The position numbers were made by a program, and so were the translations under genes. A stretch of DNA of 64,000 bases from NCBI RefSeq assembly GCF_004010195.1, contig NC_057719.1, forward strand, positions 30,065,853 through 30,129,852, in the 5' to 3' direction. This document shows positions 5,012 through 54,600 of this stretch, one piece after another. The notes under the pieces are model-generated. The model ran no database searches and was not told the origin of the DNA. It was given only the letters and a program-made list of their open reading frames with translations. The DNA is from Chiloscyllium plagiosum (taxonomy: Eukaryota). How positions within the stretch are numbered: the stretch's first letter is position 1; every line of letters begins with the position of its first letter.

Positions 5012-5112
5012 ATTCTGATGAAGAGTCACTGGACTGAAAATATTAACTCTGCTTTCTTCCCACTGATGCTCAATTTCGCCAGCGAGTCCTGTTTTTGTTT
5101 CAGAACTCCAAC
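5012..5112 (+). mobile_element. Old Penelope pLTR with hammerhead-like core
   Basis: CTGATGA(5015-5021) AG AGTC-actg-GACT GAAA; tail like the 56281-56385 pLTR. Confidence 0.6.
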
Positions 5113-7264: not shown

Positions 7265-8365
7265 GGGTCGAATTTTACAGTTTTTGGATAAACTTTTCTT
7301 ATGGGCTTCTTGCCGCAAGGCCGAGTACATTTCTTCAATGTACCAAACACACTTCATTAATTGCCTACCGAGTCTATGTCATCTCTCATGCCCATTATTT
7401 GCTTCTCCTACCATGCGCCCTTCCAGGAACAACTGACCACTCAACAGATATCCACAAAAACCACAGTAACACTTGTGCCTGCATCATCATTAAAAGCCGA
7501 CTGTACACCCAGACAAGCACTGTCAGTCTGGAGCTGGGTACAGGTGCCTGCATGCACACTGTAGCATTACAATGACAGTTACCAGTGCAGCCAAAGGTAC
7601 AGCATTGAAGTGCGGAACTATCCTGTCATTGGATCAGAGTTATGGCATAAGGGTTTTCTGAGGCTGGCACATGTCAGATTCCAATGCCTGTGGACATGGA
7701 GTGCATATGGCCAGTGCCCATGCAGCACACCATGAATGGTCATTTGGAGAAAGCAGTGAGCTGAATCAGTTGCTAGCTCTGGTTTCCTTGTTGCATTTTC
7801 CTGACATCCAGCTTGTTTGGCAACTTTGGAGTCTGAATATGAATGAGGCCAGCTGAGTTGTAAATAAATTGTTTAACAATCAATAGTAATCGTCAATTGG
7901 CATCTCACTGCTGCCTAATGTGAATTTCAGCAAGCCACTTATGAAAAGCATAAAAGATCATAGAATCCCTACAGCATGGAAGCAGGCCATTCAGCCTATC
8001 AAATCCGCACCAACCCCCAAAGAGCATTCCACCCAGATCCATTTCCCTCCTCAAAACCTTGCAGTTCCCATGGCAATCCACCTAGTCTGACATTAGTGGC
8101 AATTTCACATGGCCAATTCACCTAACCTACATATCTTTGGAGTGTGGGAGAAAACCCACACAGACACAGGGAGAATATGCAAACTCCACAGGGTGGAATC
8201 AAATCCAGGTTCCTTGTGCTATGGGGCAGCAGTGCTAACCACTGAGTCATGATGCTGTCCAGGATGAAGCAAGATTACCTGAATGTCAAATGCTGCACTT
8301 TCATCCAATTCTGCCACAGATCTTGCCAGAGCCTACTTTGGTTAGATTCTTATAAGATTCTTCCC
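7265..8365. mobile_element. Old interspersed repeat, possibly a non-autonomous PIF/Harbinger derivative
   Basis: Ends GGGTCGAATTTTA / TAAGATTCTTCCC are roughly inverted; 7580-7720 is homologous to 26267-26408. Confidence 0.45.
7958..8240 (-). mobile_element. Older HE1-type SINE
   Basis: Diverged reverse complement of the 1011-1324 element. Confidence 0.8.
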
Positions 8366-16203: not shown

Positions 16204-16469
16204 AGGAGAAAGTGAGGACTGCAGATGCTGGAAAGTCAGAGTCAAAAAGTGTGGCACTGAAAAAGCACAGCTGGTGAGGCAGCATCCGAGGAGCAGGAGA
16301 GTCAACATTTTGGGTTTTGGCTAATGATGACAAGCCTACGCAGATGCCAGGGTTAGAAGCTCCAGACAATGTTGGGCATGACAACATCCCTGTCCAAAAC
16401 ATCGACTCTCCTGCTCCTCGGATGCTGCCTGACCTGCTGTGCTTTTCCAGCACCACACTTTTTGACTCT
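16204..16469. mobile_element. Inverted pair of Penelope pLTR arms around an 80-bp spacer
   Basis: 16238-16313 is the imperfect reverse complement of 16394-16469. Confidence 0.8.
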
Positions 16470-18681
16470 ATCATTCTCTCATTCCAGGAAAACAGCCCAC
16501 AGTAGGCTCGAAGGATGGGTGGTGTGTTGCCCAACATTTGACTACTCACTATTATGTGGAGAAAATCCTGACTATGATTGCTCTGAGTGCCTGACTCTGT
16601 CCAACTCCTGGACTAGTGTTGGAGACTGCCCTTAATTTACTCTGACAGGACACCCTGAGGGGGTCAAGTCCCCCTTGGCTTGATTGAGGCCTGCTGACAC
16701 CTTTGGCAAGCTTCTTTATTTTGTGTTTGCACTAAATGGCACAGCACGAAAGGAGTACCATGAGCCTGGTTAGTTCTGGCTGAGCCAGCTAAGTGCACAA
16801 AGGCTATACAAAGTGATGTAAAACAGGGTTATTGTGAGCCCCAGGTAGGCTCAGAGTAAGTGAATGCTATGACAGATTCTCTGCCATCTCTGTCCTCTCT
16901 GCACCCCAGGGTGCTGCCTCCAATTCCCAGCATTGATTCTCCTCACTTCTACATGTTAGCAGTTTCTGTTGACATTGATTCCGAACCCCTGATTGACTTG
17001 GTCGGACAGCTCTAAATGATTGACCGAACAGACCATGAATGACCTCTGAGTAGCTCCCCAACTGATGATCTGTGGATTCCCTGACTGTTTGCACTGGACC
17101 TATTCAACTGACCCTGAATTGTAATGAGATCTTGACCATCCCAAGTGGACAACAGCCTGTGCCCAAGTTCTGGACCGTGAGCAGTCGCTACCGTTGATTG
17201 ACTGTGCTGGGACCCCCCCCGACTGAAAACAGACTTCATGGACTTGACTGTGGACTACCCCCAACTTTGATTTTGAGACATGACCATTTTGTTGGTGCAT
17301 ATACAGTATGTTTACTGTGTGGGCTGCTGGCATGACATTTTGCCATACAGCAACATGCCCAAGCCCTTGACTAATGACTGCTAACAACCAGGAGTAGCTG
17401 CCTGGTGATGTGACTGTTCTGACTTTTAAGATCTGTCTGAGAAGAAAAAGCAGAAAAAGGAAAGGCAAAGCACAGATGCTGTGAGCATTCAGTTGGGTAC
17501 AAAAGTGAGTGAGTGCCCAGAGAAGCAGCCAATACATGATCTAAACAGAAATTTCTCGTGAAACTCAGCAGGTCTGACAACATCTACAGAGAGAAAGCAG
17601 ACTCAATATTTAAGGTCCTGTGACCCTTCTCCAATCCATGAGCTGGGTGTCTCTTCCTGTGTGCAAACTGTACTTGCAGCTGTATTGCAATGAGAGGTAC
17701 CAGCGTGCTCCAAGGTGCAGCATTCCTGGGCAGAACTGTGTTATAAGTGTCTCGGAGATATACCATGATGATGTGTCGAGGCTGACCGATGTCCATGGAT
17801 GTGGATGCATGCAGTCACTGTCCTTAGCCATGAGGTGTTGATGTAACGTGTCCAAGATGGAGATCTGAGGAACAAAAGCTGAGCTGGTGTTGCCAGGTCC
17901 CCACTATGACTTTCTGGTCAGGAATTCTTGATCTAATTTCTCATTGGCAGATGGGACAATAGGAGATTACCTATTAATGAGGCCAGATTAAGTAACAATG
18001 AGAGTGATAATGGGTGATAGTGTATGCTAATAACCATCTCATCACTGATTAGCAAGAATCTTGCCTCAGTGGCTGTGACTTGGCTGGAAAATATAATTTT
18101 TTGGTCTTGAGGTCAACATCTCACTGATTTTTTTCAAATCTTTTGCTATAGTCTACATTATTCAGGGGCTGGGAAGATTCCACCCAATCAATCAAGCCTA
18201 GTTGCTCCAAACAGTAGTATGGGCATTTTAAAAGCCTGATAAATAAAGCTCCTGCATACACACAAGCTGGTGTCTCATCTTTATATATCTCCGAGACATA
18301 AAACCCAACAGTGACATGAACACCACTGAACTGTTCACTACTGTCCTTCGGAGAAGATGTCTGCTATCATTACCCACACTGGTTTATATGTTATTCCAGC
18401 ATACAACAATGTAGTTCACTCTTAACGTCCCTTTGAAATGGCCTAACAAGACATTCCATTGTCACTACCACTACTCAGGGGCAATAGGAATGAGCACTAA
18501 ATTCTAACCTTGGCAATAATGTCTACATACAATGAATAAAAAGTGAATTGAGCAACCAGTATACTTGTGTTTACTGAAAGGACTGTCCACTACTCCATGA
18601 GGGCATCTTCCTAGAAGATGTCTGAAGAGGTAAAGTTTATTAAAAAAGTACCCAATCCTACTGTCAGACTCACTCACAATG

Positions 18682-19868
18682 GAAAAAGCGAGGACTGCAG
18701 AGGAATGCATCCCAGATGTCCTCCTATTTCAAGGACTTCAATTTCCCCTCCCACGTGATCAACAATGCCCTCCATCGCATCTCCTCCACTTCCTCCACGT
18801 CTGCCCTCAAACCCAACAACCCCAACCGCAACAAGAATAGAATCCCCCAGTCCTCACATTCCACCCCACTAATTTCCAGATACAGCGCATTATCCTCAGC
18901 CATTTCCGTCACCTACAGTCAGACCCCACTACCAAAGATATATTTTCCTCACCACTCTTATCTGCATTCCGCAGAGACCATTCCCTCTGCAACTGTCTTG
19001 TTGGGTCCATGCTCCCCACCAACCTACCTTCTGCACCTGGCACCTTCCCCTGCCACTGCATGAGGTGTAAAACCTATGCTCACACTTCACACTTCACACC
19101 TCACTCCTCACTCCTCACCTCACCTCACCACCCCTCACCCCTCACTCCTCACCCCTCACCCCTCACCCCTCACCCCTCACTTGTGTCCAAGGCCCTAAAG
19201 GATCATTTCAAGTTGAGCAGAGATTTTCTTGCACAACCTTCCACCTCGTCTACTCCATCCATGGCTGTCAATGTGGTCTCCCCTATGTCAGGAAGACAAA
19301 ACGCCAACTCGTGGAGCAGTTCAGGAAACACCTTTGGGATGTACACATCAAACAACCCCACCTCCCTGTGTCCAACCACTTCAACTCCCCCTCCCCCTCC
19401 CCCAAGGATATGCAAATCCTGCCCTCCTCCACCGCCAACCCAAAGTCACTCAGCAGCTAGAGGAAGAACGCCTCATCTTCCACCTTGGGACCTTAAAACC
19501 ACACGACATTAGCATCAACTTCACTAGTTTCCAAATCTTTCCATTCCCCACACCCTATCCCAGAACTAATCCTCCAATTAAAGCACCATCCTCTTGACCT
19601 GTCCCACCTATCCATCTACCTGCCTACTTACCTCTCTTCCACTCCACCCTCCCCACTGACCTATCACAATCACCTTTCACCTGCATCCACCTATCAATTC
19701 CCAATTACTTTCCTCCAGTCCCACCCCACTGACCCCTATTTATCTCTCAGCCCCCTTCCTCTCCCACTTTCCTGATGAAGGGCTTAAACCCGAGTTGTTG
19801 AGTCTCCTGCCCCTCGGATGCTACTTGACCTAGTGTGCTTTTTCCAGTGCCACACTTTTCAACTCTCA
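18682..19868 (+). mobile_element. Penelope-like element remnant (RT C-terminus/GIY-YIG region plus pLTR)
   Basis: Peptides MSSYFKDFNFPSHVINNAL and QLEEERLIFHLGTLKPHDISINF; pLTR with CTGATGAAGGGC at 19772; short inverted 5' piece at 18682-18701. Confidence 0.85.
19081..19180 (+). repeat. 7-mer tandem repeat (CACACTT/CACTCCT/CACCCCT)n
   Basis: Read directly; lies inside the Penelope remnant. Confidence 0.9.
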
Positions 19869-21514: not shown

Positions 21515-22765
21515 TGTTTGAGATTTTTGAAGAAGTAACAAAAAAATTTGATGAGGGCAGAGCAGTGGAGGGGAGGTGATCTATATGAACTTCAGTAAAG
21601 TGTCTGACAAGGTTCCTCATGGTAGACTGGTTAGCAAGGTTAGATCTCATGGGATACAGGAAAAACTAGCCATTTGGATTCAGAACTGACTCGAAGGTAG
21701 AAGACAGAGGGTGGTGATGGGGGAGTTGCTTTTCAGACTGGAGGCCTGTGACCAGTGGTGTGCCACAAGGATCAGTGCTGGGTCCACTGCTTCTCATTAT
21801 TTATATAAATTATTTGGAAGTGAACATAGGAGGTGTAATTAGTAAGTTTGCTAATGACACCAAAATTAGAGGTGTAGTGGACAGTGAAGAAGGTTACCCC
21901 AGAGTACAACGGGATGTTGATCAGATGGGCCAAGGAGTGGCAGATGGTGTTCAATTTAGATAAATGTGAAGTGCTGCATTTTGGAAAAGCAAATCAGGGT
22001 AGGACTTACACACTTAATGGTAAAATCCTGGGAAATGTTGCTGAACAAAGAGACCTTGGAGTGTAGGTTCATAGTTCCTTGAAAGTGGAGTCACAGGTAA
22101 ACAGGATAGTGAAGAAGGCATTTGGTATGCTTTCCTTTATTAGTCAGAGTATTGAGTACAGGAGTTGGAGGTCATGTTGTGGCAGTACAGGACATTAGTT
22201 AGGCCACTTTTGGAATATTGCACGCAATTCTGGTCTCCTTCCTATTGGAAGGATGTTCTGAAGCTTGAAAGGGTTCAGAAAAGATTTACAAGGATGTTGC
22301 CAGGATTGGAGGATTTGACTTATAGAGAGAGGCTGAATAGGCTGGGGCTGTTTTCCCTGGAGCGTCAGAGGCTGAGGGATGACCTTATAAAGGTTTATAA
22401 AATCAAGAGGGCATGGATAGGATAAATAGACAAGTTCTTTTCCCCCGGGTGAGGGAGTCCAGAACTAGAGGGCATAGGTTTAGGGTGAGAGGGGAAAGAT
22501 TTAAAATGGAACTAAGGGGCAACTTTTTCACACAAAGGGTAGTGCATGTATGGAATGAGCTGCCAGAGGAAGTGGTGGAGGCTAGTACAATTACAACATT
22601 TAAAAGGCATCTTGATGTGTATATGAAAAGGAAGGGTTTAGAGGGATATGGGCCAAGTGCTGGCAAGTGGGACTAGATTAGGTTAAGATATCTGTTCAGC
22701 ATAGATGAGTTGGACTGAAGGGTCTGTTTTCTATGCTGTACATTTCTCTGACTCTATGACTCTAT
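21515..22765 (+). mobile_element. CR1/HER1-like LINE, 5'-truncated, frameshifted
   Basis: RT motifs TSGVPQGSVLGPLL and KFANDT; LVRPLLEYCTQFWSP; RGNFFTQRVV; tail ctctgactctatgactct. Confidence 0.92.
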
Positions 22766-22869
22766 TTAGTCCTTAGAGCTAAAGTGATCAAAGGGTAATG
22801 GGGCGAAAGCGGGAACAGGATGTTGAAATAGATGATCAGCCATGATCATATTGAATAGTGGAGTAGGCT

Positions 22870-24023
22870 CCCACAGCTACCTGGATTACAGCTCTTACCA
22901 CTCTGCCTCCTGCAAAAATGCCATCCCAGATTCCCAATTCCTCTGTCTCCCAGGAGGACCAGTTCCACGACAGAACACACCAGAAGGCCTCTTTCTTTAA
23001 AGACTGTAATTTTCCTTCCCACATAACTGAAGATGCCCTTCAACACATCTCATCCACGTCCCTCACCTCCGCCCTCAAACCCCATCCCTCCAACCGCAAC
23101 AAGGACAGAAGCCCCCCAGTCCTCACCTTCCAACCCACCAACCTCCGCATAAATGCCTTCTCGCAGAGTGCTTTTGGGAACATCTCCAGGACATCCACAC
23201 CAATCAACCCCACCGCTCAGTGGCCCAACATTTCAACTTCCCGTCCCACTCTGCTGAGGGCATGCAGGTCCTGGGGCCTCCTCCACCGCCAGTCCCTCAC
23301 CACCCGATGCCTGGAGGAAGAATGCCTCATCTTCCACTTTGGAACACTGCAACCCTAGGGCATCAATGTGGACTTCACCATTTTCCTCATTTCCCCTCCC
23401 CCCACCTTACACCAGTTCCAATCTGCCAGCTCAGCACTATCCTCATGACCTCCTGGGTGGCACGGTGGCACAGTGGTTAGCACTGCTGCCTCACAGCGCC
23501 AGAGACCCGGGTTCAATTCCCGCCTCAGGCAACTGACTGTGTGGAGATTGCATGTTCTCCCCGTGTCTGCGTGGGTTTCCTCCAGGTGCTCCGGTTTCCT
23601 CCCACAGTCCAAAGATGTGCAGGTTAGGTGAATTGGCCATGCTAAATTGCCCGTAGTGTTAGGTAAGGGATAAATGTAGGGGTATTGGGTGGGTTGCGCT
23701 TCGGCGGGGCGGTATGGACTTGTTGGGCCGAAGGGCCTGTTTCCACACTGTAAGTAATCTAATCTAACCTGTTTTACCTGCCAATGTTCCTTCCCACCTA
23801 TCTGCTCCATCCTCCTCTCTGATCTATTACCTTCATCCCCACCTCCACCCACCTATTGCACTCTTAGCTACCTTCTCCCCAGCCCCAGCCCTCTCCCATT
23901 TACCTCTCTACCCCAGAGGCTCCTTGCCTCATTCCTGATGAAGGGCCTTTGCCCGAAACATCAATTTTCCTGCTCCTCAGATGCCGCTGGACCAGCTGTG
24001 CTTTTCCAGCACCACTCTAATCT
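22870..24023 (+). mobile_element. Penelope-like element remnant with pLTR (SINE inserted)
   Basis: ORF 22918-23358 (SFFKDCNFPSH...LEEECLIFHFGTLQP); hammerhead-like CTGATGA(23935)AGGGC-cttt-GCCC GAAACATC. Confidence 0.85.
23455..23767 (+). mobile_element. HE1-type V-SINE (young)
   Basis: Near-identical to the other full-length copies. Confidence 0.92.
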
Positions 24024-24222
24024 CGCAGCGCTAAATGTCCTACTCCTGTTTTTATTTTCTATGTTTACACATTTTCTCAGTTCATCTGCAACTGAAACCT
24101 TTATCCATGTTTTTGTTACATTTGTTCCACTGAAGCTCTGGCTGACCTCTCACACTCTATAGCTGAAAATGTGTTGCTGGAAAAGCGCAGCAGGTCAGCA
24201 GCATCCAGGGAACAGGAGAATC

Positions 24223-24250
24223 GACGTTTCGGGCATAAGCCCTTCTTCAG
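24223..24250 (-). ncRNA. Minimal hammerhead ribozyme motif
   Basis: Minus strand CTGAAGA A GGGC-ttat-GCCC GAAACGTC; core intact, helix I disrupted by the junction. Confidence 0.65.
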
Positions 24251-24325
24251 GCTAACCTAGGTTGCTTTTGAACAATCCGTAAGCAGTTCCAGATAAGACA
24301 ACTCCCTTAATGACCATCCATGACC

Positions 24326-24359
24326 ATCCTGAAGAAGGGCTTATGCCCGAAACGTCGAT
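24326..24359 (+). ncRNA. Minimal type I hammerhead ribozyme motif
   Basis: ATC CTGAAGA A GGGC-ttat-GCCC GAAACGTC GAT: short helix I (ATC/GAT), helix II, palindromic ACGT, GTC cleavage triplet. Confidence 0.75.
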
Positions 24360-24372
24360 TCTCCTGTCATTC

Positions 24373-24400
24373 CTGAAGAAGGGCTTATGCCCGAAAAGTC
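24373..24400 (+). ncRNA. Second tandem hammerhead motif (palindrome mutated)
   Basis: CTGAAGA A GGGC-ttat-GCCC GAAAAGTC, 44 nt after the first copy. Confidence 0.6.
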
Positions 24401-25339
24401 GATTCTCCTGTTCCCTGGATGCTGCCTGACCTGCTGCCCTTTTCCAGCAACACATTTTCAGCTCTGATCTCCAGCATCTGCAGTCCTCACTTTCTCCTCT
24501 CACACTCTATACCCTATTAACCCGAGGATATTCAAACTTTGTTTCCTATGGTCCCCTGTGCTCATTGACTCATATTATCTCCTGGTCAAGCAAAACCTTG
24601 ATTTTAAAACTCTCACCCTTTGAGACAATTTTAGCATCCTATTGGAGAAGGGGAATGCTGGGAATTAATATAATCAGGGAAGATGTTGGGAGCTATCATG
24701 TCAAATTACCATTGATGGGATTGAGTTAAAAGCCTCTTCCTGTCAACATTATTTTGCCAGCATTAGGGGGGAGTATTATCGCATTGGAGAGTGTCAGGCT
24801 AACCTAGGTTGCTTTTGAACAATCCGTAAGCAGTTCCAGATAAGACGACTCCCTTAATGACCATCCATGCCCTGTACAGTGGCCCCAGGGTGCCTTGGTG
24901 ACTGGGATATCTTGCCCCACCCACCCTGCAATCCCAGGGCCTGCTCCAACTTGCTGGAAAGAAACTTGTCTTAAAGGTGCCTCTTCCTCATCCTGCAGCC
25001 TTCACAGCGGCCATCAATGGTGAGATGGGACTGAAGCTTACATGTTTTTAGCTAAGTCTGAGTTAGATGAGTTTTCTGAAGGGATTTCTGCCACATGGTC
25101 TAGTAGGTTTTCTCATCTCTTACCAATCTCACCTCATTAAGTACCTACCCGTCCTCTAAAGCGTGCTTCGGATCTGATTGTAGCCCCCATCTTACCAACT
25201 TTCATTGCTGGACAACTTGTCAATCAGTTGGATATCCCTGAATTACCCAGGCCCATGCCATCTTTAAAAGCTTGTTGTCTACCCAGACAAGAAACTATTC
25301 CAGAGCTGCTCTCCACTTCCTGCCATTTGCCCAGACATG

Positions 25340-28224: not shown

Positions 28225-28512
28225 TGGGCGGCACGGTGGCACAGTGGTTAGCACTGCTGCCTCACAGCGCCAGAGACCCGGGTTCAATTCCCAACTCAGG
28301 CGACTGACTGTGTGGAGTTTGCACATTCTCCCCGTGTCTGTGTGGGTTTCCTCCCACAGTCCAAAGATGTGCGGGGCAGGTGAATTGGCTGTGCTAAATT
28401 GCCCGTAGTGTTAGGTTAAAGGGGTAAATGTAGGGGTATGGGTGGGTTGCGGGTTGGCGTGGACTTGTTGGGCCGAAGGGCCTGTTTCCGCACTGTAAGT
28501 AATCTAATCTAA
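28225..28512 (+). mobile_element. HE1-type V-SINE
   Basis: Full head and tail with a short internal deletion. Confidence 0.9.
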
Positions 28513-31509: not shown

Positions 31510-34500
31510 AAAGAAGGCTGTGTGAGGAGATTACTCCACAGTTGAAGAGGGTGAAGACATGACTGCCAAGCTGATTCAGTGTGCTGCGTGCATGATTTGG
31601 GAGGTCAGGGACACTGATGGTGTCTCTGGCTCCTATAGCTATGGTAAGTGTGTACACATTCAGCTTCTGAAGGAGCATGTTGCAGTACTGAAGAAAGAAC
31701 TAGATGACCTCAGGATCATTCGAGAAAACAAGAATTTTCTGGACAGAACCTTCAGCGAGGTCATTACACCGAGCATACCAGAAGAGACAATGGAGATGAT
31801 GATGAGGAAGGAAGAGATGATTCAAGTACAAGAGATCCCGGGGGAAGTACCTCTCGTGAACAAGTGAACCTCATGGAAACTGTTGAGACAGATGATATTG
31901 CCAGTTCACGAGGTGGACAGGTCTGCCAATTGAAAATTGGCATGGAAGCAAAGCCGAGGAGTCAGACATCATGCAGAGCCATGGTAATAGGAGACTCCAT
32001 AGTGCGAGGAACTGAAAAGTGTTTCTGCGGCAACAGGCAGGAATTGAGGATGGTGTGTTGCCTTCTGGTGCCAGGATTCAGGACGTCACCGACAGAGTGC
32101 AAGGAATCCTCTAGGGCAAAGGTGAAGAGCCAGAGGTGATGGTGCATGTCAGCACAAGTGACATCATGAAGAAGAGGAGGGACATTCTACAGCGGGACTT
32201 CAGAGAACTCAGACGAAGGCTGAAAAGCAAGACTTCCAGGTGGTTATCTCCAGTTTGCTTTCAGTTCCTCAGGCTGGAGAGAGCAGGAACAGAGAGATAA
32301 TGGACTTGAATGTGTGGCTGAGGAACTGGTGCAGAAAGCAAGGATTTAAATTCTTGGATCACTGGGGTATGTTTTGCGGTAAGGATAAATTATACAAGAG
32401 CAACGGGTTGCACCTTAATGGGTGGGGACCAGCATTCTGGCAGGCAGGTTTGCCACTGTGTTTAAACTAAGTAGTGGGGGACAGGGGACAAACTGGAATT
32501 TCAAGAAGGAGGTTAAAGGGAAAGTGAGATATAAGAGAAGTTAAGGAAGACAACAGAATCAATGGAGCAGAAAACTCAAGAAGGGATCATACAGTATGGT
32601 CAAGTGAAATAGGGATTGATAAAAAGGGTGAGGGGAATAACAAATGTAAAATATTATATATGAATGCGCGAAGCATAAGAAATAAGGTGGAGGATCTTGA
32701 GACTCAGTTGGAAATTGACAGGTACGATGTTGTGGGGATAACTAAGACATGGCTTCAAGTGGACAAAGCCTGGGAAATGAATATTCAAGGCTATAGTGCT
32801 ATCGAAAGGACAGAGTGATGGGCAGAGGGGGTGGGGTGGCTCTGTTGGTGAGGAATAATATTCAGTCCCTTGCAAGGGGGGACATAGAATCAGGAGATGT
32901 AGAGTCAGTATGGATGGAGCTGAGAAATTCTAAGGGTAGAAAGACCCTGTGGGAGCTATCTACAGGCCCCCAAACAGTAGTCTGGATGTCGGGTGTAAGT
33001 TGAAGAAGAAATTGAAATTGGCCTGTCGCAAAGGTATTACTACAGTTGTTATGGGGGATTTCAACATGCAGGTAGACTGGGAGAATCAGGATGGTACTGG
33101 ACCCCAAGAAAGGGAGTCTGTGGAGTGCCTCCGAGGTGGATTCTTAGAACAGCTTATACTGAAGCCTCCCAGGAAGAAGGCAATTCTGGATCTGGTGTTG
33201 TGCAACAAACCGGATTTGATCATGGACCTCAAAGAAAAGGAGCCATTAGGAGGTAGTGACCATTCAGGTTGGTATGACAGGTCGGCGAAACATTGAAGGC
33301 CGAAGGGCCTGTACTGTGCTGTAATGTTCTATGTTCTATGTTCTATAATATGATAAGTTTTAATAAGTTTTAATTTGAGAGGGAGAAGGGAGAATTGGAA
33401 GTGTTAGTATTGCAGTTGAACAAAGGGAACTATGGAGCTATTAGGGAGGAGCTGGCTAAAGTTCAATGGTTCAATACCCTAGCAGAGATGGCAGTGAATC
33501 AACAATGACAGGTATTTCTGGATACAATGCAGAAGGTGCAGGGTCAGTTCATTCCAAAGAGGAAGAAAGATCCTAAGGGGAGGCAGGGGTGGCCATGGCT
33601 GACGAGGGAAGTTAAGGACTGTATGAAGATAAAATAGAAGAAGTATAACATAGCAAAGATGAGCGGGAAGCTGGAGGACTGGGAAACTGAAGCAACAGAG
33701 GATAACTAAGGCAATACCTGGAGAAAAAAATGAAGTACAAAGGCAAACTGGCCAAAAATATAAAGGAGGATACTAAAAGCTTTTTTAGGTATGTAAAAAG
33801 GGAAAAAAAAGGTTAAGACTAAAATTGGGCCCTTGAAGACAGAAACGGGTGAATTTATTATGGGGAGCAAGGAAATGGCTGAAGAGTTGAGTAGGTACTT
33901 TGGGTCTGTCTTCACTAGGGAAGACACAGGCAATCTCCCAGATGTAATAGTGGCTGAAGGACCTAGGGTAATGGAGGAACTTAAGGGAATTTATATTAGG
34001 CAGAAAATTGTGTTGGATAGACTGTTAGGTCTGAAGGCTGATAAGTCCCCGGGACCTGATGGTCTGCATCCCAGGGTCCTTAAGGAGGTGGCTGTAGAAA
34101 TCGTGGGCACATTAGTAATCATTTTCCAATGTTCTATAGATTCAGGATTAGTTCCTTCGGATTGGGGGGTGGCTAATGTTGTCCCAATTTTCAAAAAAGG
34201 AGGGAGAGAGAAAACACGGAATTATAGACCGCTTGGCCTGACGTCAGTGGTGGGAAAGATGCTGGAGTCAATTATAAAAGATGAAATTACGACTCATTTG
34301 AATAACAGTAACAGATAGGTCAGAGTCAGCATGGATTTACGATTAATCTTCTGGAAGTTTTTGAGGATGTGATTATGAAGATGGGCAAGTTAGAACCAGT
34401 GGATGTAGTGTACCTGGACTTTCAGAAAGCCTTTGATAAAGTCCCACATAGGAGGTTAGTGAGCAAAATTAGAGCACATGGTATTGGGGGCAAAATACTG

Positions 34501-35580
34501 ACTTGGATTGAAAATTGGCTGACTGACAGGAAGCAAGGAGTAGTGATAAACGGAATGGCAGGCGGTGACTAGTGGGGTACTACAAGGTTCAGTGCTGGGA
34601 CCGCAGCTGTTTACAATATACATTAATGATATAGATGAAGGTATTAAAAGTAATATTAGCAAATTTGCTGATGACACAAAGCTGGGTAGCAGGGTGAAAT
34701 GTGAGGAGGATGTTATGAGAATACAGGGTGACTTGGACAGGCTAGGTGAGTGGATGGATGCATGGCAGATGCAGTTTAATGTGGATAAATGTGTGGTTAT
34801 CCACTCTGGTGGCAAGAACAGGAAGGCAGATTACTTTCCAAATGGAGTCAAGTTAGGTAAAGGGGGAGTACAAAGAGATCTAGGTATTCTTGTACATCAG
34901 TCAATGCAGGTACAGCAGGCAGTGAAGAAAGCTAATGGCATGCTGGCCTTCATAACAAGAGAAATTGAGTACAGGAGCAAAGAGGTCCTTCTGCAGCTGT
35001 ACAGGGCCCTGGTGAGACCACATCTGGAGTATTGTGTGCAGTTTTGGTCTCCAAATTTGAGGAAGGACATTTTGGCTATAGAGGGAATGCAGCGTAGATT
35101 CACGATGTCAATTCCCAGAGTGGCGGGACTGTCATATGTTGAAAGAATGGAGCGACTGGGCTTGTGTACACTTGAGTTTAGAATGATGAGAGGGGATCTG
35201 ATTGAGATGTATAAGATTATTAAAGGATTGGACACATTGGAGGTAGAAAACATGTTTCCGTTGATTGGTGAGTCCAGAACCAGAGAACACAGTTTAAAAA
35301 TAACTGGGTAGGCCATTTAGAATAGAGTTGAGTAGAAACTTCTTCACCCAGAGAGTGGTGGATATATGGAATGCTCTTCCCCAGAAGGCAGTGGAGGCCA
35401 GGTCTCTGGATACTTTCAAGAAAGAGATGGATAGAGGTCTTAAAGATAGTGGAATCAAGGGTTATGGGGGTAAGGCAGGAACAGGATACTGATTGTGGAT
35501 GATCAGTCATGATTATAATGAATGATGGTGCTGGCTCGAAGGGCCGAATGGCCTACTCCTGCACCGATCGTCTATTATCT
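31510..35580 (+). mobile_element. Near full-length CR1 LINE (ORF1 zinc finger + SGNH esterase; ORF2 APE + RT), inactivated
   Basis: ORF1 from 31559 (CAACMIW..YGKC; VIGDSIVR; FKFLDHW). ORF2 motifs YMNARSIRNK, MGDFN, GSDH, SPGPDG, NYRP, DFQKAFDKVPH, QGSVLGP, KFADD. Multiple frameshifts and stops. Confidence 0.93.
33265..33345 (+). mobile_element. Short 3' tail of another CR1 family inserted in the LINE
   Basis: ggccgaagggcctgtactgtgctgtaa(tgttcta)3, matching the tail of the 27205 element. Confidence 0.75.
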
Positions 35581-39307: not shown

Positions 39308-39729
39308 TGTGAAAGAGAAAGGCTGCAAAGGCAGTTCAATGGTGCCTATTCAGAGTCCACTGAGGTGGTCCTTTAGGGCATGTCACGTCCTACTGTTCCT
39401 TGATCTTCCTTTGCCATGTACTTTCACTTGCTTTCAAGAGGCACAGCATGGCTGGTTCACACTTACAATGTCTCTAACTTATTGGTTATAACCCACAACT
39501 GATGAGGGGGATATAAACTGTGAAAGAGAAAGGCTGCAAAGGCAGTTCAATGGTGCCTATTCAGAGTCCACTGAGGTGGTCCTTTAGGGCATGTCACGTC
39601 CTACTGTTCCTTGATCTTCCTTTGCCATGTACCTTCACTTGCTTTCAAGAGGCACAGCATAGCTGGTTCACACTTACAATGTCTCTAACTTATTGGTTAT
39701 AACCCACAACTAATGAGGGGGATATAAAC
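39308..39729 (+). repeat. Tandem duplication, 2 x 211 bp
   Basis: 39308-39518 and 39519-39729 differ at three positions by my reading. Confidence 0.95.
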
Positions 39730-41288
39730 TAGCTTTCTTCTGGCTTGGAGGATATTTTTACTACAGTGAAAGGACAGCTCCTTCCCTTCTGGAAATCCAA
39801 TAGCTTATGAGTGTGAACTATTGAACAGAAACAATCTACAAAGGCAGGTAGCAGGCCTTAGGCATCAACAACTAGACAATTTCACAGACTGATTATGTAC
39901 TTGCTGCTAGCTGAATCTTCATTTGTACACACACTTTAACTCTAGCGCACCAACAGAGTTTCCTCACTACTTGAACAAACAGCATTTACAATTAATTTCA
40001 AGTAACTTGTTTCTCAAAAAGTCCAGTAATCCTTTCCACAAACCTTGGTTTTTATAATGGCATATTTCTCATATCACTCCACATTAAAAAACACAAAAAT
40101 AAAAAGCTATGTCTTTTATGATTTTGTCGAATGTTATTACTGGATGAGTCAGCTCATCAAAATCAATTCCTGATGCTTCAAACTTCTCAATGCAAAGTGA
40201 TGGCTGAGCGGTATTATGGCTAGACCATTAACCCTATGGCCAGACCCAAGTTCTGGCAACTCAGGTTTAACTCTCTGCCATGGGAGAGGTAGAATTTGAA
40301 TTTAATGAAAACCTCGAATTAGGCATCTAATGATGACTATGAAAACGTTGTTGATTGTCAGAAAACATCCATCTGGTCTTCTAATGTGCTTTAGGGAAAG
40401 AAACTGCTGCCCTTACCTGGTCTGGCCTGCATGTGACTCCAAACCCACAGGAATGTGAGTGACTCTGAACTGCCCTCTTGGTGATTGGGAATGGGCAATA
40501 AATGCCTGGCCAGCAAAACTCACATGCCATGAATTAATAAAACAGGAAACAAATTCACATTACTACTCAGTTTTAAAATGGCATAAAAAGCTCCAGAAAT
40601 ATTGACAATTTAATCAACAAAATACCTACATACATGTAGCACTAGTTAAAAACCTAAACTCTAGATTAAACTATATTTTATTGTTACATCACATACCAGC
40701 CTCACCACATTCTTATGGTACAGCTACAACCCATTTAGAATACAGTTCTCCACTTTCATCTAGCAGTTCGGAAAAGACATTCATTGTAATTCTGCCCCCA
40801 AGGCCACTTTGTTAGCAGGGACAGTCACCGAACTCATGCTGGAACAAGTTGTAACTCAGGGCTCTTACTCTCCATCTTAGAAGTCACTCACTATACCTAC
40901 ATGGGTGCTCACAGCATCACTACCTTGACCTGCCTCGCCTTTGTGTTCTGTTACCTCATTCAGAACCCACAAGTTCATAAAATATCTGTCTTGCCTCATC
41001 TATCAGCACAACAATGTATTAAAAATAATACAATTTGAATAATAACACTACACTCCTGCCAAAATTTATCCCTCAGAAAATACTATATAGCTGAAATGGT
41101 CATTTAATAACAACACTTCAAATGTAATTCACTGCCAGTGAATATGTTGCATTGTTTTAGGGGACATGAAAGAAGCTGTATAAATGCAAATTATCTTCAA
41201 GTAAAAGAAAACACTGCAGCAACAGCCATCTGTAGGAAACACATTTTTAATATTGCCTGTGATAACAACAGTTGATACAAGCCAAATC

Positions 41289-45600: not shown

Positions 45601-48600
45601 ACTAAGAGATCTGACACCTGACCCGGTCCGTTGTCAAGCACCAAATCCAAAATGGCCCCTCCTCTATTCGGCCTATCTACATATTGAGTCAGGAGTCCTT
45701 CCTGGACACCTTATAAAATCTGCTCCATCCAAACTATTTGCACTAAGGAGGTTCCAATCAATTTTAGGGAAGTTGAAGTCACCCATGACAACAACCCTGT
45801 TACTTCTGCACTTTTCCAAAATCTGCTGCCCAATCTGCTCCTCTCTGTTGCTATTGGGAGTCTATAGAAAACTCCCAACAAAGTGACTATTCCTTTCCTG
45901 TTTTTGACTTCCATCCATAATGACTCAGTAGACAAACCCTCCTCGATGGCCTCCCTTTCTGCAACTGTGATACTATCCCTGATTAGCAATGCCACTCCCC
46001 AAACTTTTTTATCTCCCTTCCTCGGGCGGCACGGTGGCACAGTGGTTAGCACTGCTGCCTCACAGCGCCAGAGACCCGGGTTCAATTCCCGCCTCAGGCG
46101 ACTAACTGTGTGGAGTTTGCACGTTCTCCCCGTGTCTGCGTGGGTTTCCTCCGGGTGCTCCGGTTTCCTCCCACAGTCCAAAGATGTGCAGGGTCAGGTG
46201 AATTGGCCATACTAAATTGCCTGTAGTGTTAGGTAAGGGGCAAAATGTAGGGGTAGGGGTGGGTTTCGCTTCGGCGGGTCGGTGTGACTTGTTGGGCCGA
46301 AGGGCCTGTTTCCACACAGTAATCTAATCTAAATCTATTCCTTTTGAAACATCTAAACCCCAGAACATCCAGCAATCATTCCTGCTCCGTGATATCTAAG
46401 TATCTGTAAAGGCGAAAACATTGTAGCTCCAGGTATGGATCCATGCTCAAAGTTCATCACCCTTATTCCTGACACTTCTTGCTTTAAAATCATCACACTT
46501 CAACCCATCACACCGATTGCAACTTTGCCCTATCAACTGTCTATCCTTCCTCACAGACCTCTGCACACTGTATCTGCCTGTTCACCAACTACCCCATCCT
46601 CTGATTGGTAGCTCTGGTTCCCATGCCCCCTGCCAAACTAGTTTAAATCCTCTCTAAGAGCTCAGTAAACCTCCTGCCCAGGATATTGGTGCCCCTCCAG
46701 TTCAGGTGCAACCGGTCCTCCTTGTACAGCTCCCACCTTCCCCAGAAGGTATACCAATGATCCACGTATCTGAAGCCCTCCCTCTTACACCAGTTCTGCA
46801 GTCATGTGTTCAGCTGCATTCGCTCTCTGTTCCTAGCCTCACTAGCATACATCATGACTGATACAGGTTTCGCAGCCCCATTCTCCCACCTTCTCCCCCT
46901 AACCTTTGATTCCCTTAGAAATATATAGGTTCTTGATTAGTATCTTAAATACTCAATGACTTGGGCTCCACAGCCCTCTGTGGCATTGAGTTCATAAGAG
47001 TAGAGATTTTTCTCCTTCTCAGTTCTAAAGGATAATCCTTTTATTCAGAGACGGTGCCTCGGGTGGAAACCAAGTGGAAACTCTTATCACCATCCACTCT
47101 ATCCAGGCCTCTCAGTATTCTGTAAATTTCAATGAGATTCTCTCTCCTCATCCTTCTAAACTCCATCGAATACAGACTCCGAATTCTCACCTGCTCCTCA
47201 TAAGACAAGCCCTTCATCCTTGCGTTCATTCTTGTGAACATCCTCTGGATCCGCAAGGCTAGCAAATCCTTCTTTGGATACAGGATCTAAAACTGATTAC
47301 AATATTTAAAATGCAATTTTAGCAGAGCTTTATATAGCCTCAGCACTACATCCCTGCCACTATATTCTACCACTCGCGAAATGAATGCTGAAATTGCACA
47401 TGCCTTCTGAACTGCCAACTAAACTCACATGTTAAAAGAATCCTGGATTAAAACTTGTATGACCCATTGTGCTTCAGATTTCTGAAGCCTTTCCTGGGTT
47501 AGAAGCTAATCTATGCCCCTTTACTTCCTATCAGAGTGCATAACCTCACACTTTCCCACATTGTATTCCATCTGCCACTTGTTTGCCCTCTCTCCTAGAC
47601 TGTCCAATTCCTTCTGCATCGTCTCCACTTAACAGTACCTGTCCCTCCACGTATCTTTGTGTCATCTGCAAACTTAGCAACAATGCTCTCAGTTCCTTTG
47701 GCCAGATCGCTAATGTATAACAAGAATAGTTGTGGTCCCAAAACTGACAACTACAGAACTCCACCAGTCACTGGTTGCCATCCTGAAAAAGACCCTTTTC
47801 CTCATCCTCTGCCTTCTGCTTGTCCGTCAATCCTCTATCCATGCCAATTCCTTGCCCCTACCTCCATGTGCTCTAATTTTTATTTAGCAGCCTCCTCTGC
47901 AGCATTTTTAAAAGGCCTTCTGGAAATCCTTGCTTGTTACGTCCTCAAAAGAATTCTAACAGATTTGTCAAGCACGATCTCCCCTTGATCAAACTTGCCA
48001 ACTCATCCCTATTTTACCATGCATTTTCAATACTCAGCCATCTCATCCTTATAATGATTCTAAAATCTTAGCAATGTCTGAAGTCAGGCTAACCGTCCTA
48101 TAATTTCCAGTCTTCTACCTTCCTCTCTTCTTAACAGGGTTGTTATGTTCACTATTTTCCAGGTCCCTGGGACCCTCTTGACTCTAATGATATCTGAAAG
48201 ATCACCACCAATGCCTCTACAATCTCCTTAGCTCTCTCCTTCATAACCCTGGGGTGTAGTCTGGTCTGGATGATCTATCCACTTTTACATCTTTCAGCTA
48301 TCCCAGTGAAGGCCGCTACACTCATCTTTGCTCCGTAACTCTTTTGAAGTTCTGCAATGCTATTGGTGTTTTCCACTGTGAAGACTGAAGCAAAATAACT
48401 ATTCAGTTCCTCTGCCATTTTTTTGTTCCCCATTACTACATCTCCAGCCCCCATTTTCCAGTGGTCCAGTGCCCACTCTTGCCTCTTACCTTTTATGTAT
48501 CTTAAAAAAATCCTTTGTAACCTTCTTATATATTACTTGCTAGCTTATGCTTATATTGCATCTTCTCCTCACTTACTGCTGTTTTAGTTGTTCTCTCCCG

Positions 48601-51600
48601 GCCTTTAAAGGTTTCTTTAGATTTAGATTACTTTACAGTGTGGAAACAGGCCCTTCGGCCCAACAAGTCCACACCGACCCGCCGAAGCGCAACCCACCCA
48701 CACCCCTCCATTTACCCCTTACCTAACACTACGGGCAATTTAGCATGGCCAATTCACCTGACCTGCACATCTTTGGACTGTGGGAGGAAACCGGAGCACC
48801 CGGAGGAAACCCATGCAGACACGGGGAGAACGTGCAAACTCCACACAGTCAGTCGCCTGAGGCGGGATCTGAACCCAGGTTTCTGGCGCTGTGAGGCAGC
48901 TGTGCTAACCACTGTGCCACCGTGCCGCCCTAACCTTCTTACTTCCCACCAACCTTCATAACATTGTATGCTTTTACTTTTGCTTTTAAACTATCCCTTG
49001 TCCTCACCTGAGTATGTTTCTTCTTACTTGGGATGAAATTCTGTTGTGGCTGCCAAATTACCCACAAACTCTCTTGCCATTGCTGCTCTATTGTCTTCCC
49101 TGCTAGGCTGTCCTTCCAATGTACTCTGGCCAGCTCCTCCCTCATATTTTTGTAATTACCTTTACTCAGTTGTAATACCATTACATCTGATTCTAGCTTC
49201 TCCCTCTTAAATTGCAGGGTGAATTCTATCATGTTGTGGTCACTAACCTCTTTGAGTTTCTTCATCTTACCCTCCCAAAGCAAGTCTGGCTCATTATACA
49301 TCAAAACCAGAATTGTCTGTTTCCTAGTGGACTCTCCCATAGGCTGCCCCAAAATGATATGGTGTGAAATGTTCAGATGTCTGTCAGTCTGGCATCCTGG
49401 CAATATGTAGACCGTTGTGACCAATTTGGCAATTTTCTCTGGGATCTTAACAGATGTTGTTTGCTCAGGAAACAACAGTATGGAAAGGACTTTCAGTTGG
49501 TTTTCAAGAGTACAATCCAGTCTCACATTGGATTTACCACCAAAATTACTTCAGAACCAAGAGACATGGGCTGAGCAGCTCCTTTCATGGCAAGCTTCCT
49601 CAATTAAACATCCAAAGCCATCTCTAAACATGCAAAACATTGTTCAAACAGAACAACCAGAAAGCCCAAAAAATTGTGAAGGGTTTTCCTTGAAGGGAGC
49701 TTCAGCGTCAAGACCATCAAATGCCTGGAACTGTTTGGTGTTCAACAAATGAATTGGAAAAAAGGTTTCACATTGACTTAAAAATATTAGCTATCTTCAC
49801 AATCCATGAAACTCAGTTCCACAAATATTAAATCATAACATTATCATGTCATAAAACAACCTGAAATTGCAATTTACTGTAAACAATTCATTACACAGTT
49901 TAAAAAAGTAGCGTTGGAATTCATTGTGTGGACCATAACAACAGCATGGATCTGTTATGCAAAATAGTCCATTTACTTACCGTAAATATTTTCTAATACT
50001 TCAATGCAATTAATGAAATAAATCTAGAATAAAAACCTAACAATCAACATGGACAGTGACAAACCTACTTGCCTATTTAAAAAACCTAACTTGGTTCACT
50101 AAAGTCCTTTAAGAATCCTGCCATTCTTACTTGGTCTGCTGTAGATGTGGCTCTAGGCCCATGACAGTATGGTTGACTCAAAGCTACCTTCTAAATTGGC
50201 ATTGAAAAGGCCGTAAGTCACATTCAAAAAGTCAATACCTCCGAAAGAGTGATTAGGGATGAACAAAAAATGTTGGCCATGTCAGCGGTACCAACAGCTT
50301 GGCACCTGTTGAGACCCCAAACACTGACCCAAATACTAACCCTCTGATTAGTTGGTAGCTCTGAGGTGGGATTTCATGTCAATGAAAATCTGAAACTTCA
50401 CTTTAGGTTATTAATGATAATTGGGACAGGGCATGGGGTAGTGGACTCCAGCACTTCACAACTCAGCCCAGTGATTTGGGTAAAATGCAGGTGTCCAGTT
50501 AAAGTTTGACCTCTCTGGCACTAATGGTTTAGCTTGGGTATTGATCTTCAGGATGTTGTGACCCATTATGTCAAAGCTGCAATGTCAGTTGCTGCCTCCC
50601 ATATGCTGATTCTCTATACGAGATTGCACTATTTTTTCCTGCAGGAAAAGAGGATGTGCATGCTATTGAAAAACCAAATGGGGAAATGTGCATTCCTGCT
50701 GAGTGCAATTGTGTGGAATATACAGTGAGGAAGGAATCCTGTAAGAAGTTACTGGTTTGCAAGTGCCACAGTATGAAAAGAAAATGATGTTCGTGTCTGT
50801 TGTGAAGACAACACAGGATGACTTTGTGCCTCAAAAGCAGAAAGGAAGGAGCTTTAGTGTGTCCTTGTGACAGGATGCTCAAGGGGTCATGGAGTAGAGG
50901 GAAATGGGGTAACCAGAGAAAAGGAATGTTGCATGTACTGTAAAAGGACAGGACATATGAAGTGTGCTCATTCTTACTTCTTGACATAGTTGAACCTATT
51001 CCTCACTGCATCCATGTCCTGGGGATTATGCTGATGGGCATGCCCCTCTCAACATCCTAAGTCAAGTCAAGTTTTGCTGCAGTGTTTCAGGAGACATACT
51101 TGCAGAACTTAAGGAATAATCCTTCTCTCTTTGTCCAGACCTCTTCCATCACTTTCTCCAGAAAGGCATTGGACAGTCTGAAATGAATTGATTTCAGAAA
51201 GTCTCTATTGTGTGTGAAAGCAAGGAATGCAACTCCATTCAACAGTGTATTGTTGCTTTAAATGTCTTTAGCATCCTGCTGGCAATTTTACCATGAAAGT
51301 GGGCCAACTATCCATTTCTTCAACAAACAATCAGGTGGTCAGGTATTCTAAAAAATTATATTGAACTGATGCCCAGGAGTTAAAATCATTTTGGCTTTAT
51401 GCCAGTGATGTTAAGAGATTGATTTCTTCCTCATGTCACTACCCTCAGCAATGCTGACTCAGATTTAGAAGCATGGATATAACAATTACTATTACATCTT
51501 AAATAAATTATAATTCCTTAAATATTTTTGATAAAAATCAAATAAACTGAAGGTCAATATTATCATAAATGTATTTCAGCAGTATTTGCTATTTTTAAAA

Positions 51601-54600
51601 GTTATGATGCAAAACGATTCATAAAATCTTCTAATAAAGTTTGTGTATTTCACTGCCTTCATAAGCAATTATTTAAATACTGCTGGAAATAGATTAATGA
51701 GCAGCCATCTGAATAAATGTGTAGAACATACAAAGATAATTAATCTGAAAAGGCTACCAGGACTATTACTGTTAAATTCCTAATTACAAATCTTGTTTTA
51801 ATTGTGATAACTATACCACAATCATATTTCATATATCCATTAATATTAATTTACTGCTTTCTATCAATCACTTTTCTGAACCACTATAGCTTACAACTAA
51901 TTCAACTTAGTTCAAGAGTATTAACACTGGCATTTGTATGGAGGAACAAAAGACATCAGAATAGGAGCATACCATTCAGCCCTTCGAGCCTGATCCGTCA
52001 TTCAATAAAATCATGTCTGATCTCAATTCTACTTTCATCTCTACTCTACATAAACCTTGACTTCCTGGTCTGTTGAAACACTAACTCAACCCTGCAGAAA
52101 TTCAATGACTAATTCTCAACTGTTTTCTGGGGAAAATAATTCTTTATACTAAGGATGTGCAAGAAAAAAACTGCCCTCATCTCATTCTTAAATGCCGGAA
52201 TTCTTAATCTTGAGCTGCATTCCCTGTTCTAGTCTCTTTTACAAGGAGAAAGCATCCTTTCAGAATCTACTCTGTCACAACCCCTCAGGATCTAATATCT
52301 TTATTTATATTCGATGTAATTGGAAAGAAAGCTATAATAATTTGTGTAATGAATTCACTACATACCACTGCTACATGGCCAAGATTGTACCATACATCAG
52401 CCACTTCCTCATCATTCACAGCCAGTGCAAGTGCTCTTTGAAATGAGCTCAGAGTCATATCATACTGCTGTGCATAAAAGCAGCACAGCCCTAGGTTGTT
52501 GAAGAGCTGACAATTATAAACACCCATTTGGAGAAGTCGCCTGTAGAAAAGAAAATCTTTTCAACACAATTCCAAAACCAAAAACATTGAACTCTTTGCA
52601 TAACAAGCAAAATGTACAACATGAATTAACAGAGTCAGAGAGCACAGAAATAGACCCTTTGATCCAATTTGTTCGTGCTGGCCAGACATCCCAAACTGAC
52701 CTAGCCCCATTTGCCACCATTTGGCCCTTCTCCCTCTAAACTCTTCCTATTCATATACCCTTTCAGGTGCCTTTAAAATATTATAGGGTTATGGGAAGAA
52801 AGCAGGAGAATGTGGTTGAGTAACATGTCAGCCTTCATCGAATTGCAAAGCTGACTCAATGTGCCAAATAGTCTAATTCTGCTCTTATACCTTATGGTTT
52901 TCTGGTTAAATGGATTCCAAACCAGGCCAAATCTGCTGTGGACCAAAGCCTGGACTCAAAGCCTAGCGAGGCAGGCTCAAACAAAAGTCTGCTCGCTCAG
53001 GGGTTAGATAGGGCAGAGATTAAACAACATGTCAAATCAGGCAAAGCCATTAAAATCGGTTGAGCCTTCCCAGTACTTGCTGCAGCTCTCTCTGAGAGTT
53101 ACAATGAAATGCAGTATGCAAGTGAAATGGAATCGAGGGGATAGGTTCTGTCAGATTACTGTTCAGGAGGTGAAGGTGTATTGATTGATAGGTTTCTGAA
53201 CTCAGCAATGCCATCACCTTGTAGCCCTGGCATTTCTTTTTCAAATAGAATTTTTTTTTTTTGAATGGGCAACGGTTCCTAGTAAGCTATTAGCTTCCAC
53301 TGAAGCTATGTCTGAATTAAAATTCATCACCAAGTACCAAGGCATGTGCACTCATAAGTAAAAAAACAAAAAAGGCATACACCATTGGAAACTGAAGTAG
53401 TTTACCTATCTGAACTATGGCTGTTTTATTAAAATAGCTTAATGATCATAATCTGTAGCTAAAATTTAGTTATTGATATATCTTCTGATCTCACCTATAG
53501 AATCGCAATGCAATCTCAGGCTGATCTGAATAAAAATGATTACTTCCTATGCAGGCAATGGCTTCTACATTTGTATTATCTTGTTTTAAAACATTCTTGT
53601 AATATTCAGTGGCTGACACCATGTTGTTCATTTCCTGTTAAAGTCAAAAATAATGTATTATAAAATGGCAAATTTAAGAGAGAATGTCAACACATTTTGA
53701 CCAAAGTTTTAAAATTCTGAATAAGAATTGACATGTACAATACATACATTGTATATACGAGCTATTCCTGTAAGCAGTGTAACTTCTGCTGGGAAACAAT
53801 CCAGTCCTTGCTTGTAAAGGCTTAATGCTGTCAATGGCTGGTCTAAACGAATATAGACCTATTCAAATAAAGTGAAAATTATTTAGCAGGTGTAAGAATT
53901 TGTATTTAAAAACTCCCTTTATTCATTAATCTTTTCAGAATTGATCCAGTAGTTAATATTAACACAGGGATTAGAATACGTTGTTGGTAATGAGACAAAT
54001 AAGACTTACGAGTTATTGTCTGTCAATGGTTTAAAAAAAAACTTCAAGTGAGGGACAGATGCATAGTTTAAAAGTGAATATTGAGAAGACCCTGAGTTCC
54101 ATAATTCTGAAATGGCACTTCAATGTCATTCTTTAGCATCAACATGCATCAAGTGTCATGATGTTATGATTGCAGCATGGATACAAAACAAACTCACTGT
54201 ACATATTTAGGACTAATCATTAATATTGCAATAAAATCAGAAATTGCTGGAAACATTCAGTAGGAATGGTAGCACAGAATCAGAGAATCCCTACATTGTG
54301 GAAACAGGCCATTCGGCCCAACAAATTCACACCGACCCTCCAAAGAGTATCCCACCCAGAACACACTCCCTTACCCCTGTTACTCTATGTATCCCCTGAT
54401 TAATGCACCTAGCCTACACGTCCCTGAACACTATGGGCAATTTAGCATGGCCAATTCACCTAACCTGCACATCTTCGGATTGTAGAAGGAAACCAGAGCA
54501 CCCGGAGAAAACCCACATAGACACGGGGAGAACATGTAAACTCCACTCAGACAGTCGCCCGAGGCTGGAATCGAACCCAGATCCCTGGCACCGACAGGCA

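Follow-up and report, generated by a model that had tools for sequence, protein, structure and literature searches.

Minimal type I hammerhead ribozymes were described in 2014 in the pLTRs of metazoan Penelope-like elements (PLEs), and the published alignment includes examples in which helix I has only 2 bp (Cervera and De la Pena 2014, PMC4209133). Direct and inverted pLTRs with a one-sided tail of 30-40 nt are the norm for PLEs (Craig et al. 2021, PMC8557442), and unrelated DNA captured between solo pLTRs with TSDs has been reported as well (Arkhipova et al. 2013, PMC3846280). For the Poseidon PLE of the green anole, two RT start sites explain the ends with and without a tail, uncleaved RNA is the main template, and insertion in vitro did not depend on the hammerhead, which needed protein when assayed (Frangieh et al. 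2024, PMC11167929). What PLE hammerheads contribute to transposition is not yet settled, as PMC8557442 and PMC11167929 both state.

Here, we analysed a tandem of hammerhead cores within a 64-kb stretch of DNA, referred to as a whole as the window. The pattern CTGANGA-N13-GAAANGTH places two cores on the plus strand (24329-24356 and 24373-24400) and one on the minus strand (24223-24250), and it has 5 matches in the window, where 0.01 would be expected by chance. TRF reports the plus-strand pair at 24327-24411 with a period of 44, 1.9 copies and 97% matches, and the two units differ at 1 of 41 positions, namely 24397. The three cores lie together within a single 350-bp insertion which, from left to right, consists of an inverted pLTR piece, captured host DNA, a stutter, unit 1, unit 2 and a tail. 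The features of the insertion and its surroundings are as follows.

22848-24016, plus strand: an older PLE from the repeat family of the insertion, a separate copy truncated at its 5' end (tblastn match at 22848-23385, DNA similarity)
24146-24161, no strand: left copy of the 16-bp TSD (exact match to 24496-24511; single in the related species)
24161-24251, minus strand: inverted tail-less pLTR piece, which holds the third core (96.7% identity over 92 columns to 24372-24463)
24247-24322, plus strand: captured host DNA, 76 nt (copy of 24794-24869, 1 mismatch in 76)
24320-24329, plus strand: 10-nt stutter (repeats 24310-24319; its final 3 nt are also the first of unit 1)
24327-24367, plus strand: unit 1, a 41-nt pLTR fragment with core 24329-24356 and an intact ACGU palindrome (40/40 identical to the minus copy)
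24367-24463, plus strand: unit 2, a pLTR fragment plus the pLTR 3' part, with core 24373-24400 (palindrome broken at 24397)
24464-24497, plus strand: PLE 'tail' of ~34 nt, at the right end only (missing from the inverted copy)
24496-24511, no strand: right copy of the TSD (first 2-3 nt common to the element end)
24794-24869, plus strand: host DNA from which the captured stretch was copied, lying 283 nt past the target site

The letters of the two plus-strand cores are as the preliminary description had given them, TRF agrees with its 44-nt period, and it put the predicted cut sites, after 24356 and 24400, in the right positions. The boxes CUGANGA, GAAA and NUH are present in all three copies of the insertion; the extra nucleotide before helix II and the G10.1-C11.1 opening pair of the published consensus are found as well. 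The assignment to the minimal type I hammerheads of PLEs likewise holds: the copies fit that consensus, related copies lie downstream of GIY-YIG remnants, and in a second family of the window the core is retained while the helices show apparently compensatory changes. The tandem hammerhead pair is real, and its motif class is the one already described in 2014. A check against covariance models, which had been proposed, brought no support, as Rfam gave no hammerhead family with E up to 5 for 9 kb or with E up to 10 for 141 nt. Such a miss is unsurprising for a hammerhead motif that lacks helix III. Rfam matches to MIR6136 and MIR7723, at 47.9 and 47.6 bits versus gathering scores of 99 and 200, reflect the inverted repeat only and were rejected.

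The copies differ in what surrounds the core. The palindrome at 15.2-16.2 is intact in unit 1, in the minus copy and in the majority of the family, and it is broken in unit 2 at 24397. Family RNA reads mapped to the insertion mostly carry C at this position (153/168 and 240/270), so the A of unit 2 is private to that copy. Helix I measures 3 bp in unit 1, where the stutter provides one of its strands, 2 bp in unit 2 and just 1 bp in the minus copy, because the sequence upstream of the minus core is captured host DNA.

Several lines of evidence define the insertion. None of 3000 random flank pairs gave a shared match of 16 nt; the length of the TSD is put at 13-16 bp, and 2-3 nt are shared with the element end. 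The empty site is preserved in a related species (organism B), of which a contig joins 23998-24145 directly to 24496-25085, and the source stretch 24794-24869 exists there as well. The parts of the insertion that exist in duplicate show 4 differences over 224 positions, one falling in the palindrome, compared with 33 substitutions in about 740 nt of flank between this genome (A) and organism B, which places the insertion after the A/B split. The junction between captured DNA and unit 1 is bridged without differences by one contig, possibly from the assembly's own sample, and in run X5 of a second study one contig extends 23 nt into the insertion, under the 31-nt rule; the insertion is likely present in other individuals. 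At four other family copies in the window, flanking matches measured 5-8 nt only and no TSD was called.

How was this arrangement made? The inverted piece begins 1 nt before the CUGA box and shares 5 nt of microhomology with the captured stretch (24247-24251), while at the other end the family's ends pile up at 24497-24499, the end of the tail. Counting the native upstream letters of the family, the five junctions show microhomology of 1, 5, 3, 1 and 2-3 nt, and the short microhomology at most junctions indicates template jumping. We examined where the short copies of the family in the window start (24251, 24327, 24367, 62656, 10350, 38771, 16391 and 16314): five of the eight begin 1-8 nt before the CUGA box, none begins at the cut site, and the remaining three start inside or just past helix II. 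The sample is small, and three of the five starts near the CUGA box come from the insertion described here. It is possible that the reverse transcriptase of the family tends to halt or jump at the 5' edge of the core, in which case the fold would delimit the template and would not serve for cutting.

We propose that a Penelope-like RT-endonuclease of Neptune/Nematis type acted in trans on the end of a very abundant pLTR. Reverse transcription would have begun at the tail and halted just 5' of the hammerhead core; after this halt, a slip-back of 44 nt would have led to the core being recopied as unit 1, followed by a jump onto host DNA ~300 nt away, with the 10-nt stutter, and the product would have been linked with a second copy, inverted and without tail, whose priming took place on the opposite side. 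The hammerhead motif at the insertion would then be inherited from the pLTR. The 44-nt repeat could also stem from later slippage and not have formed during insertion. Taking these observations together with the computed folds described below, we consider it likely that the tandem arose within one PLE insertion in trans, a fairly young event that happened once, and that it is probably inert in place.

The presumed source family is well represented in the window. A repeat of ~130 nt around the cores occurs in 11 copies or fragments, 3 of them long, and the long copies at 19772 and 23935 follow remnants of RT/GIY-YIG proteins. An exhaustive protein search with the 83-aa piece at 19182-19430 returned 517 relatives with E up to 0.001; all 10 relatives tested had a GIY-YIG match in Pfam and 7 of them also an RVT_1 match, with several of the Pfam matches lying below the curated cut-off. 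When mapped back by tblastn, the relatives marked 18662-19549, 22848-23385 and 55034-56161 of the window. The CX2-5CxxC linker, found in 69 of 73 protein matches of 200 aa or more, points to a source PLE of the Neptune/Nematis type. In the protein-cluster Atlas, the GIY-YIG lead rests on 18-20% of cluster members. The six single-frame ORFs of the window gave no Pfam match, and a word-indexed protein search gave no matches. Scanning metagenomes for a 20-nt pattern of the family returned 17 loci, which were rejected as chance, all 17 matching over just 20-23 nt.

The older PLE at 22848-24016 retains RT-end and GIY-YIG remnants and a decayed hammerhead at 23935, and it is split by a SINE-like repeat at 23455-23767. 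The latter is one copy of a dispersed repeat of ~315 nt, others of which lie at 1012-1324, 28225-28512, 46024-46337, 48617-48930, 54284-54616 and 7961-8244, and which we take to resemble a tRNA-derived SINE. Two older inverted arrangements of the pLTR family, each with a tail at one end, are found at 16204-16469 and 18681-19866. Elsewhere in the window, a two-copy 211-bp tandem with 98% matches occupies 39308-39730, and the fragments at 21718-22760, 34416-35311 and 47499-47929 presumably resemble C-termini of LINE reverse transcriptases.

A second hammerhead family, with the same core and different helices, is found at 56284, 5015 and 54683. It accompanies a second PLE family at 54628-56339, with RT and GIY-YIG remnants at 55034-56161 and an inverted pLTR piece at 54628-54690; the hammerhead-like motif at 56284 has a 5-bp helix II and a 4-bp helix I, and another copy lies at 5015. 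An alignment of 11 window copies, from which three decayed fragments without most of the core were left out, showed two-sided changes in 4 of 7 pairs, mostly one between-family event counted three times, and 80.5% of cells paired. Among the 8 aligned copies of the source family, no two-sided changes in helix II were found.

Could the pair nevertheless function as a compact self-cleaving dimer, as had been suggested from its letters? The whole insertion folds to a hairpin of ~91 bp (z = -17.7), and in this context a working dimer is not borne out by the computed structures, as one of the two units is paired with the inverted copy throughout the folding stages computed. In all seven co-transcriptional snapshots the antisense copy holds one of the units, pairing with unit 1 first and then swapping to unit 2 during transcription, and the two are never both free. 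Folding as a dimer carries a calculated penalty of 15.8-16.8 kcal/mol when the inverted copy is left out and of 57.3 kcal/mol when it is included; only the difference of ~40 kcal/mol is robust, while the absolute values mean little, nearest-neighbour energies omitting the tertiary contacts of the hammerhead and any help from protein. Restoring the palindrome in silico gave 10.3-11.0 kcal/mol without and 57.0 kcal/mol with the inverted copy; repair of the AAGT of unit 2 helps only where the inverted copy is absent. Since any read-through RNA includes an antisense copy of the units, the palindrome of unit 2 is mutated and the helices I measure 2-3 bp, these models make it most likely that the pair is inert in place.

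The opposite-strand core had been called intact, with the consequence that both strands could be affected. Its core letters are all there; 'intact' is limited by the 1-bp helix I. For the wider claim there is no support: within the insertion the minus core has no same-strand partner, it is fully paired in the minus-strand fold, and its helix II probability there is 0.0.

Among the alternatives, the one that survives best, though we consider it unlikely, is that the compact double hammerhead self-cleaves, at least at 24400, if transcription sets in downstream of the inverted copy and ahead of unit 1, or if PLE protein helps. A transcript starting within the captured stretch would be free of the antisense copy, and the construct 24300-24500 of the preliminary description excludes the inverted copy at 24161-24251. 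Both cores are complete, helix II has a probability of ~0.98-0.99 when the tandem is folded alone, and a period of 44 nt allows a dimer topology. In the outer ribozyme, which combines the core of unit 1 with the cut site at 24400, A15.1-U16.1, C15.2-G16.2 and the 3-bp helix I are kept, the 5' strand of that helix being captured host DNA; in the inner one, with the core of unit 2 and the cut site at 24356, the C-G pair is lost and helix I has 2 bp. Published minimal hammerhead dimers and trimers cleave at a low yet detectable level (PMC4209133), and the anole PLE hammerhead cleaves when protein is present (PMC11167929). Against this reading, the pairs of helices I and III reach probabilities of no more than 0.002 even when the inverted copy is left out, and the RNA data, weak evidence from ~2% of one polyA single-cell run, leave the unique parts of the stretch without depth and show no accumulation of read ends.

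In the same run, RNA depth was present in 12 of 30 bins, all on repeat sequence, and the pLTR family is transcribed somewhere in the genome. A sequencing-run search listed no matching RNA run. In run X21, A>G differences occurred at 20 places within 23900-25100, compared with 7-9 in three DNA or untyped contig sets; this excess in family RNA could reflect A-to-I editing of repeat duplexes, or other copies and individuals.

We give still less credence to the more far-reaching proposal that template jumping made a compact double hammerhead whose outer helix I was improved by the captured DNA, which cleaves if transcribed internally and which represents a nascent retrozyme. That the tandem is an incipient non-LTR retrozyme, with a unit capable of being excised, circularised and re-inserted, appears very improbable. 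Two consecutive core-bearing units are indeed the layout that a preprint on such elements uses as a criterion (10.64898/2026.07.22.740005), but TRF counts just 1.9 copies here, one palindrome is broken, the period of 44 nt lies below the consensus range of 51-972 bp given there, and the tandem sits inside a TSD-bounded composite insertion. Moreover, the other 8 family copies in the window are single, and this is the only such tandem among the 9 TRF rows of the window, which show no spread of a tandem family. An error of assembly or sequencing is equally hard to credit as the origin of the additional 44-nt unit: although no contig among the longest records listed bridges the junction of the units (24367-24372), unit 2 opens with native upstream letters of the family that are absent from unit 1, the units differ at 24397, and the junction of captured DNA and unit 1 is backed by a contig without differences.

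The one-off insertion in trans, as we read the locus, is a tidy case of how composite PLE insertions are made, proven by an empty site; it may serve as a species marker and adds one more host to a known motif class. To carry more weight it would need either cleavage by the tandem or a clustering of 5' ends at the core that extends to the whole genome. In the open literature, that is outside subscription papers, Repbase and bioRxiv supplements, we found no shark PLE hammerhead, a match to 'shark' referring to the shape of a ribozyme; one searched supplement file of PMC4209133 contained 0 matches to 'shark', 'Callorhinchus' or 'Leucoraja'.

Compared with the minimal hammerheads in the parts of PMC4209133 considered here, the cores share CUGANGA, the extra nucleotide, a helix II opened by G-C, GAAA-CG-UC, the lack of a stable helix III, a short helix I and a site after the GIY-YIG end, and in both cases near copies lie on opposite strands. 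With a helix II of 4 bp and helices I of 2-3 bp, the present pair stands at the short end of the range given there, and its spacing is 44 nt versus about 3 kb. Tandem type I hammerhead units derived from pLTRs are also common to the animal non-LTR retrozymes, from which the locus differs in a unit below every reported consensus, fewer than two full copies and no sign of amplification (10.64898/2026.07.22.740005, in part). The likeness to Poseidon lies in the short copies, none of the eight starting at the cut site; the protein relatives of the family differ from it in carrying the Neptune/Nematis CX2-5CxxC linker (PMC11167929). In architecture the locus resembles the complex PLE insertions of PMC3846280 and PMC8557442, with which it shares direct and inverted pLTRs, a one-sided tail, a TSD and captured DNA. 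Unlike the cases given in these sources, the insertion is a miniature of 350 bp with no ORF, its TSD measures 13-16 bp compared with 8-10 bp in the rotifer cases, and the captured DNA was taken from 283 nt beside the target.
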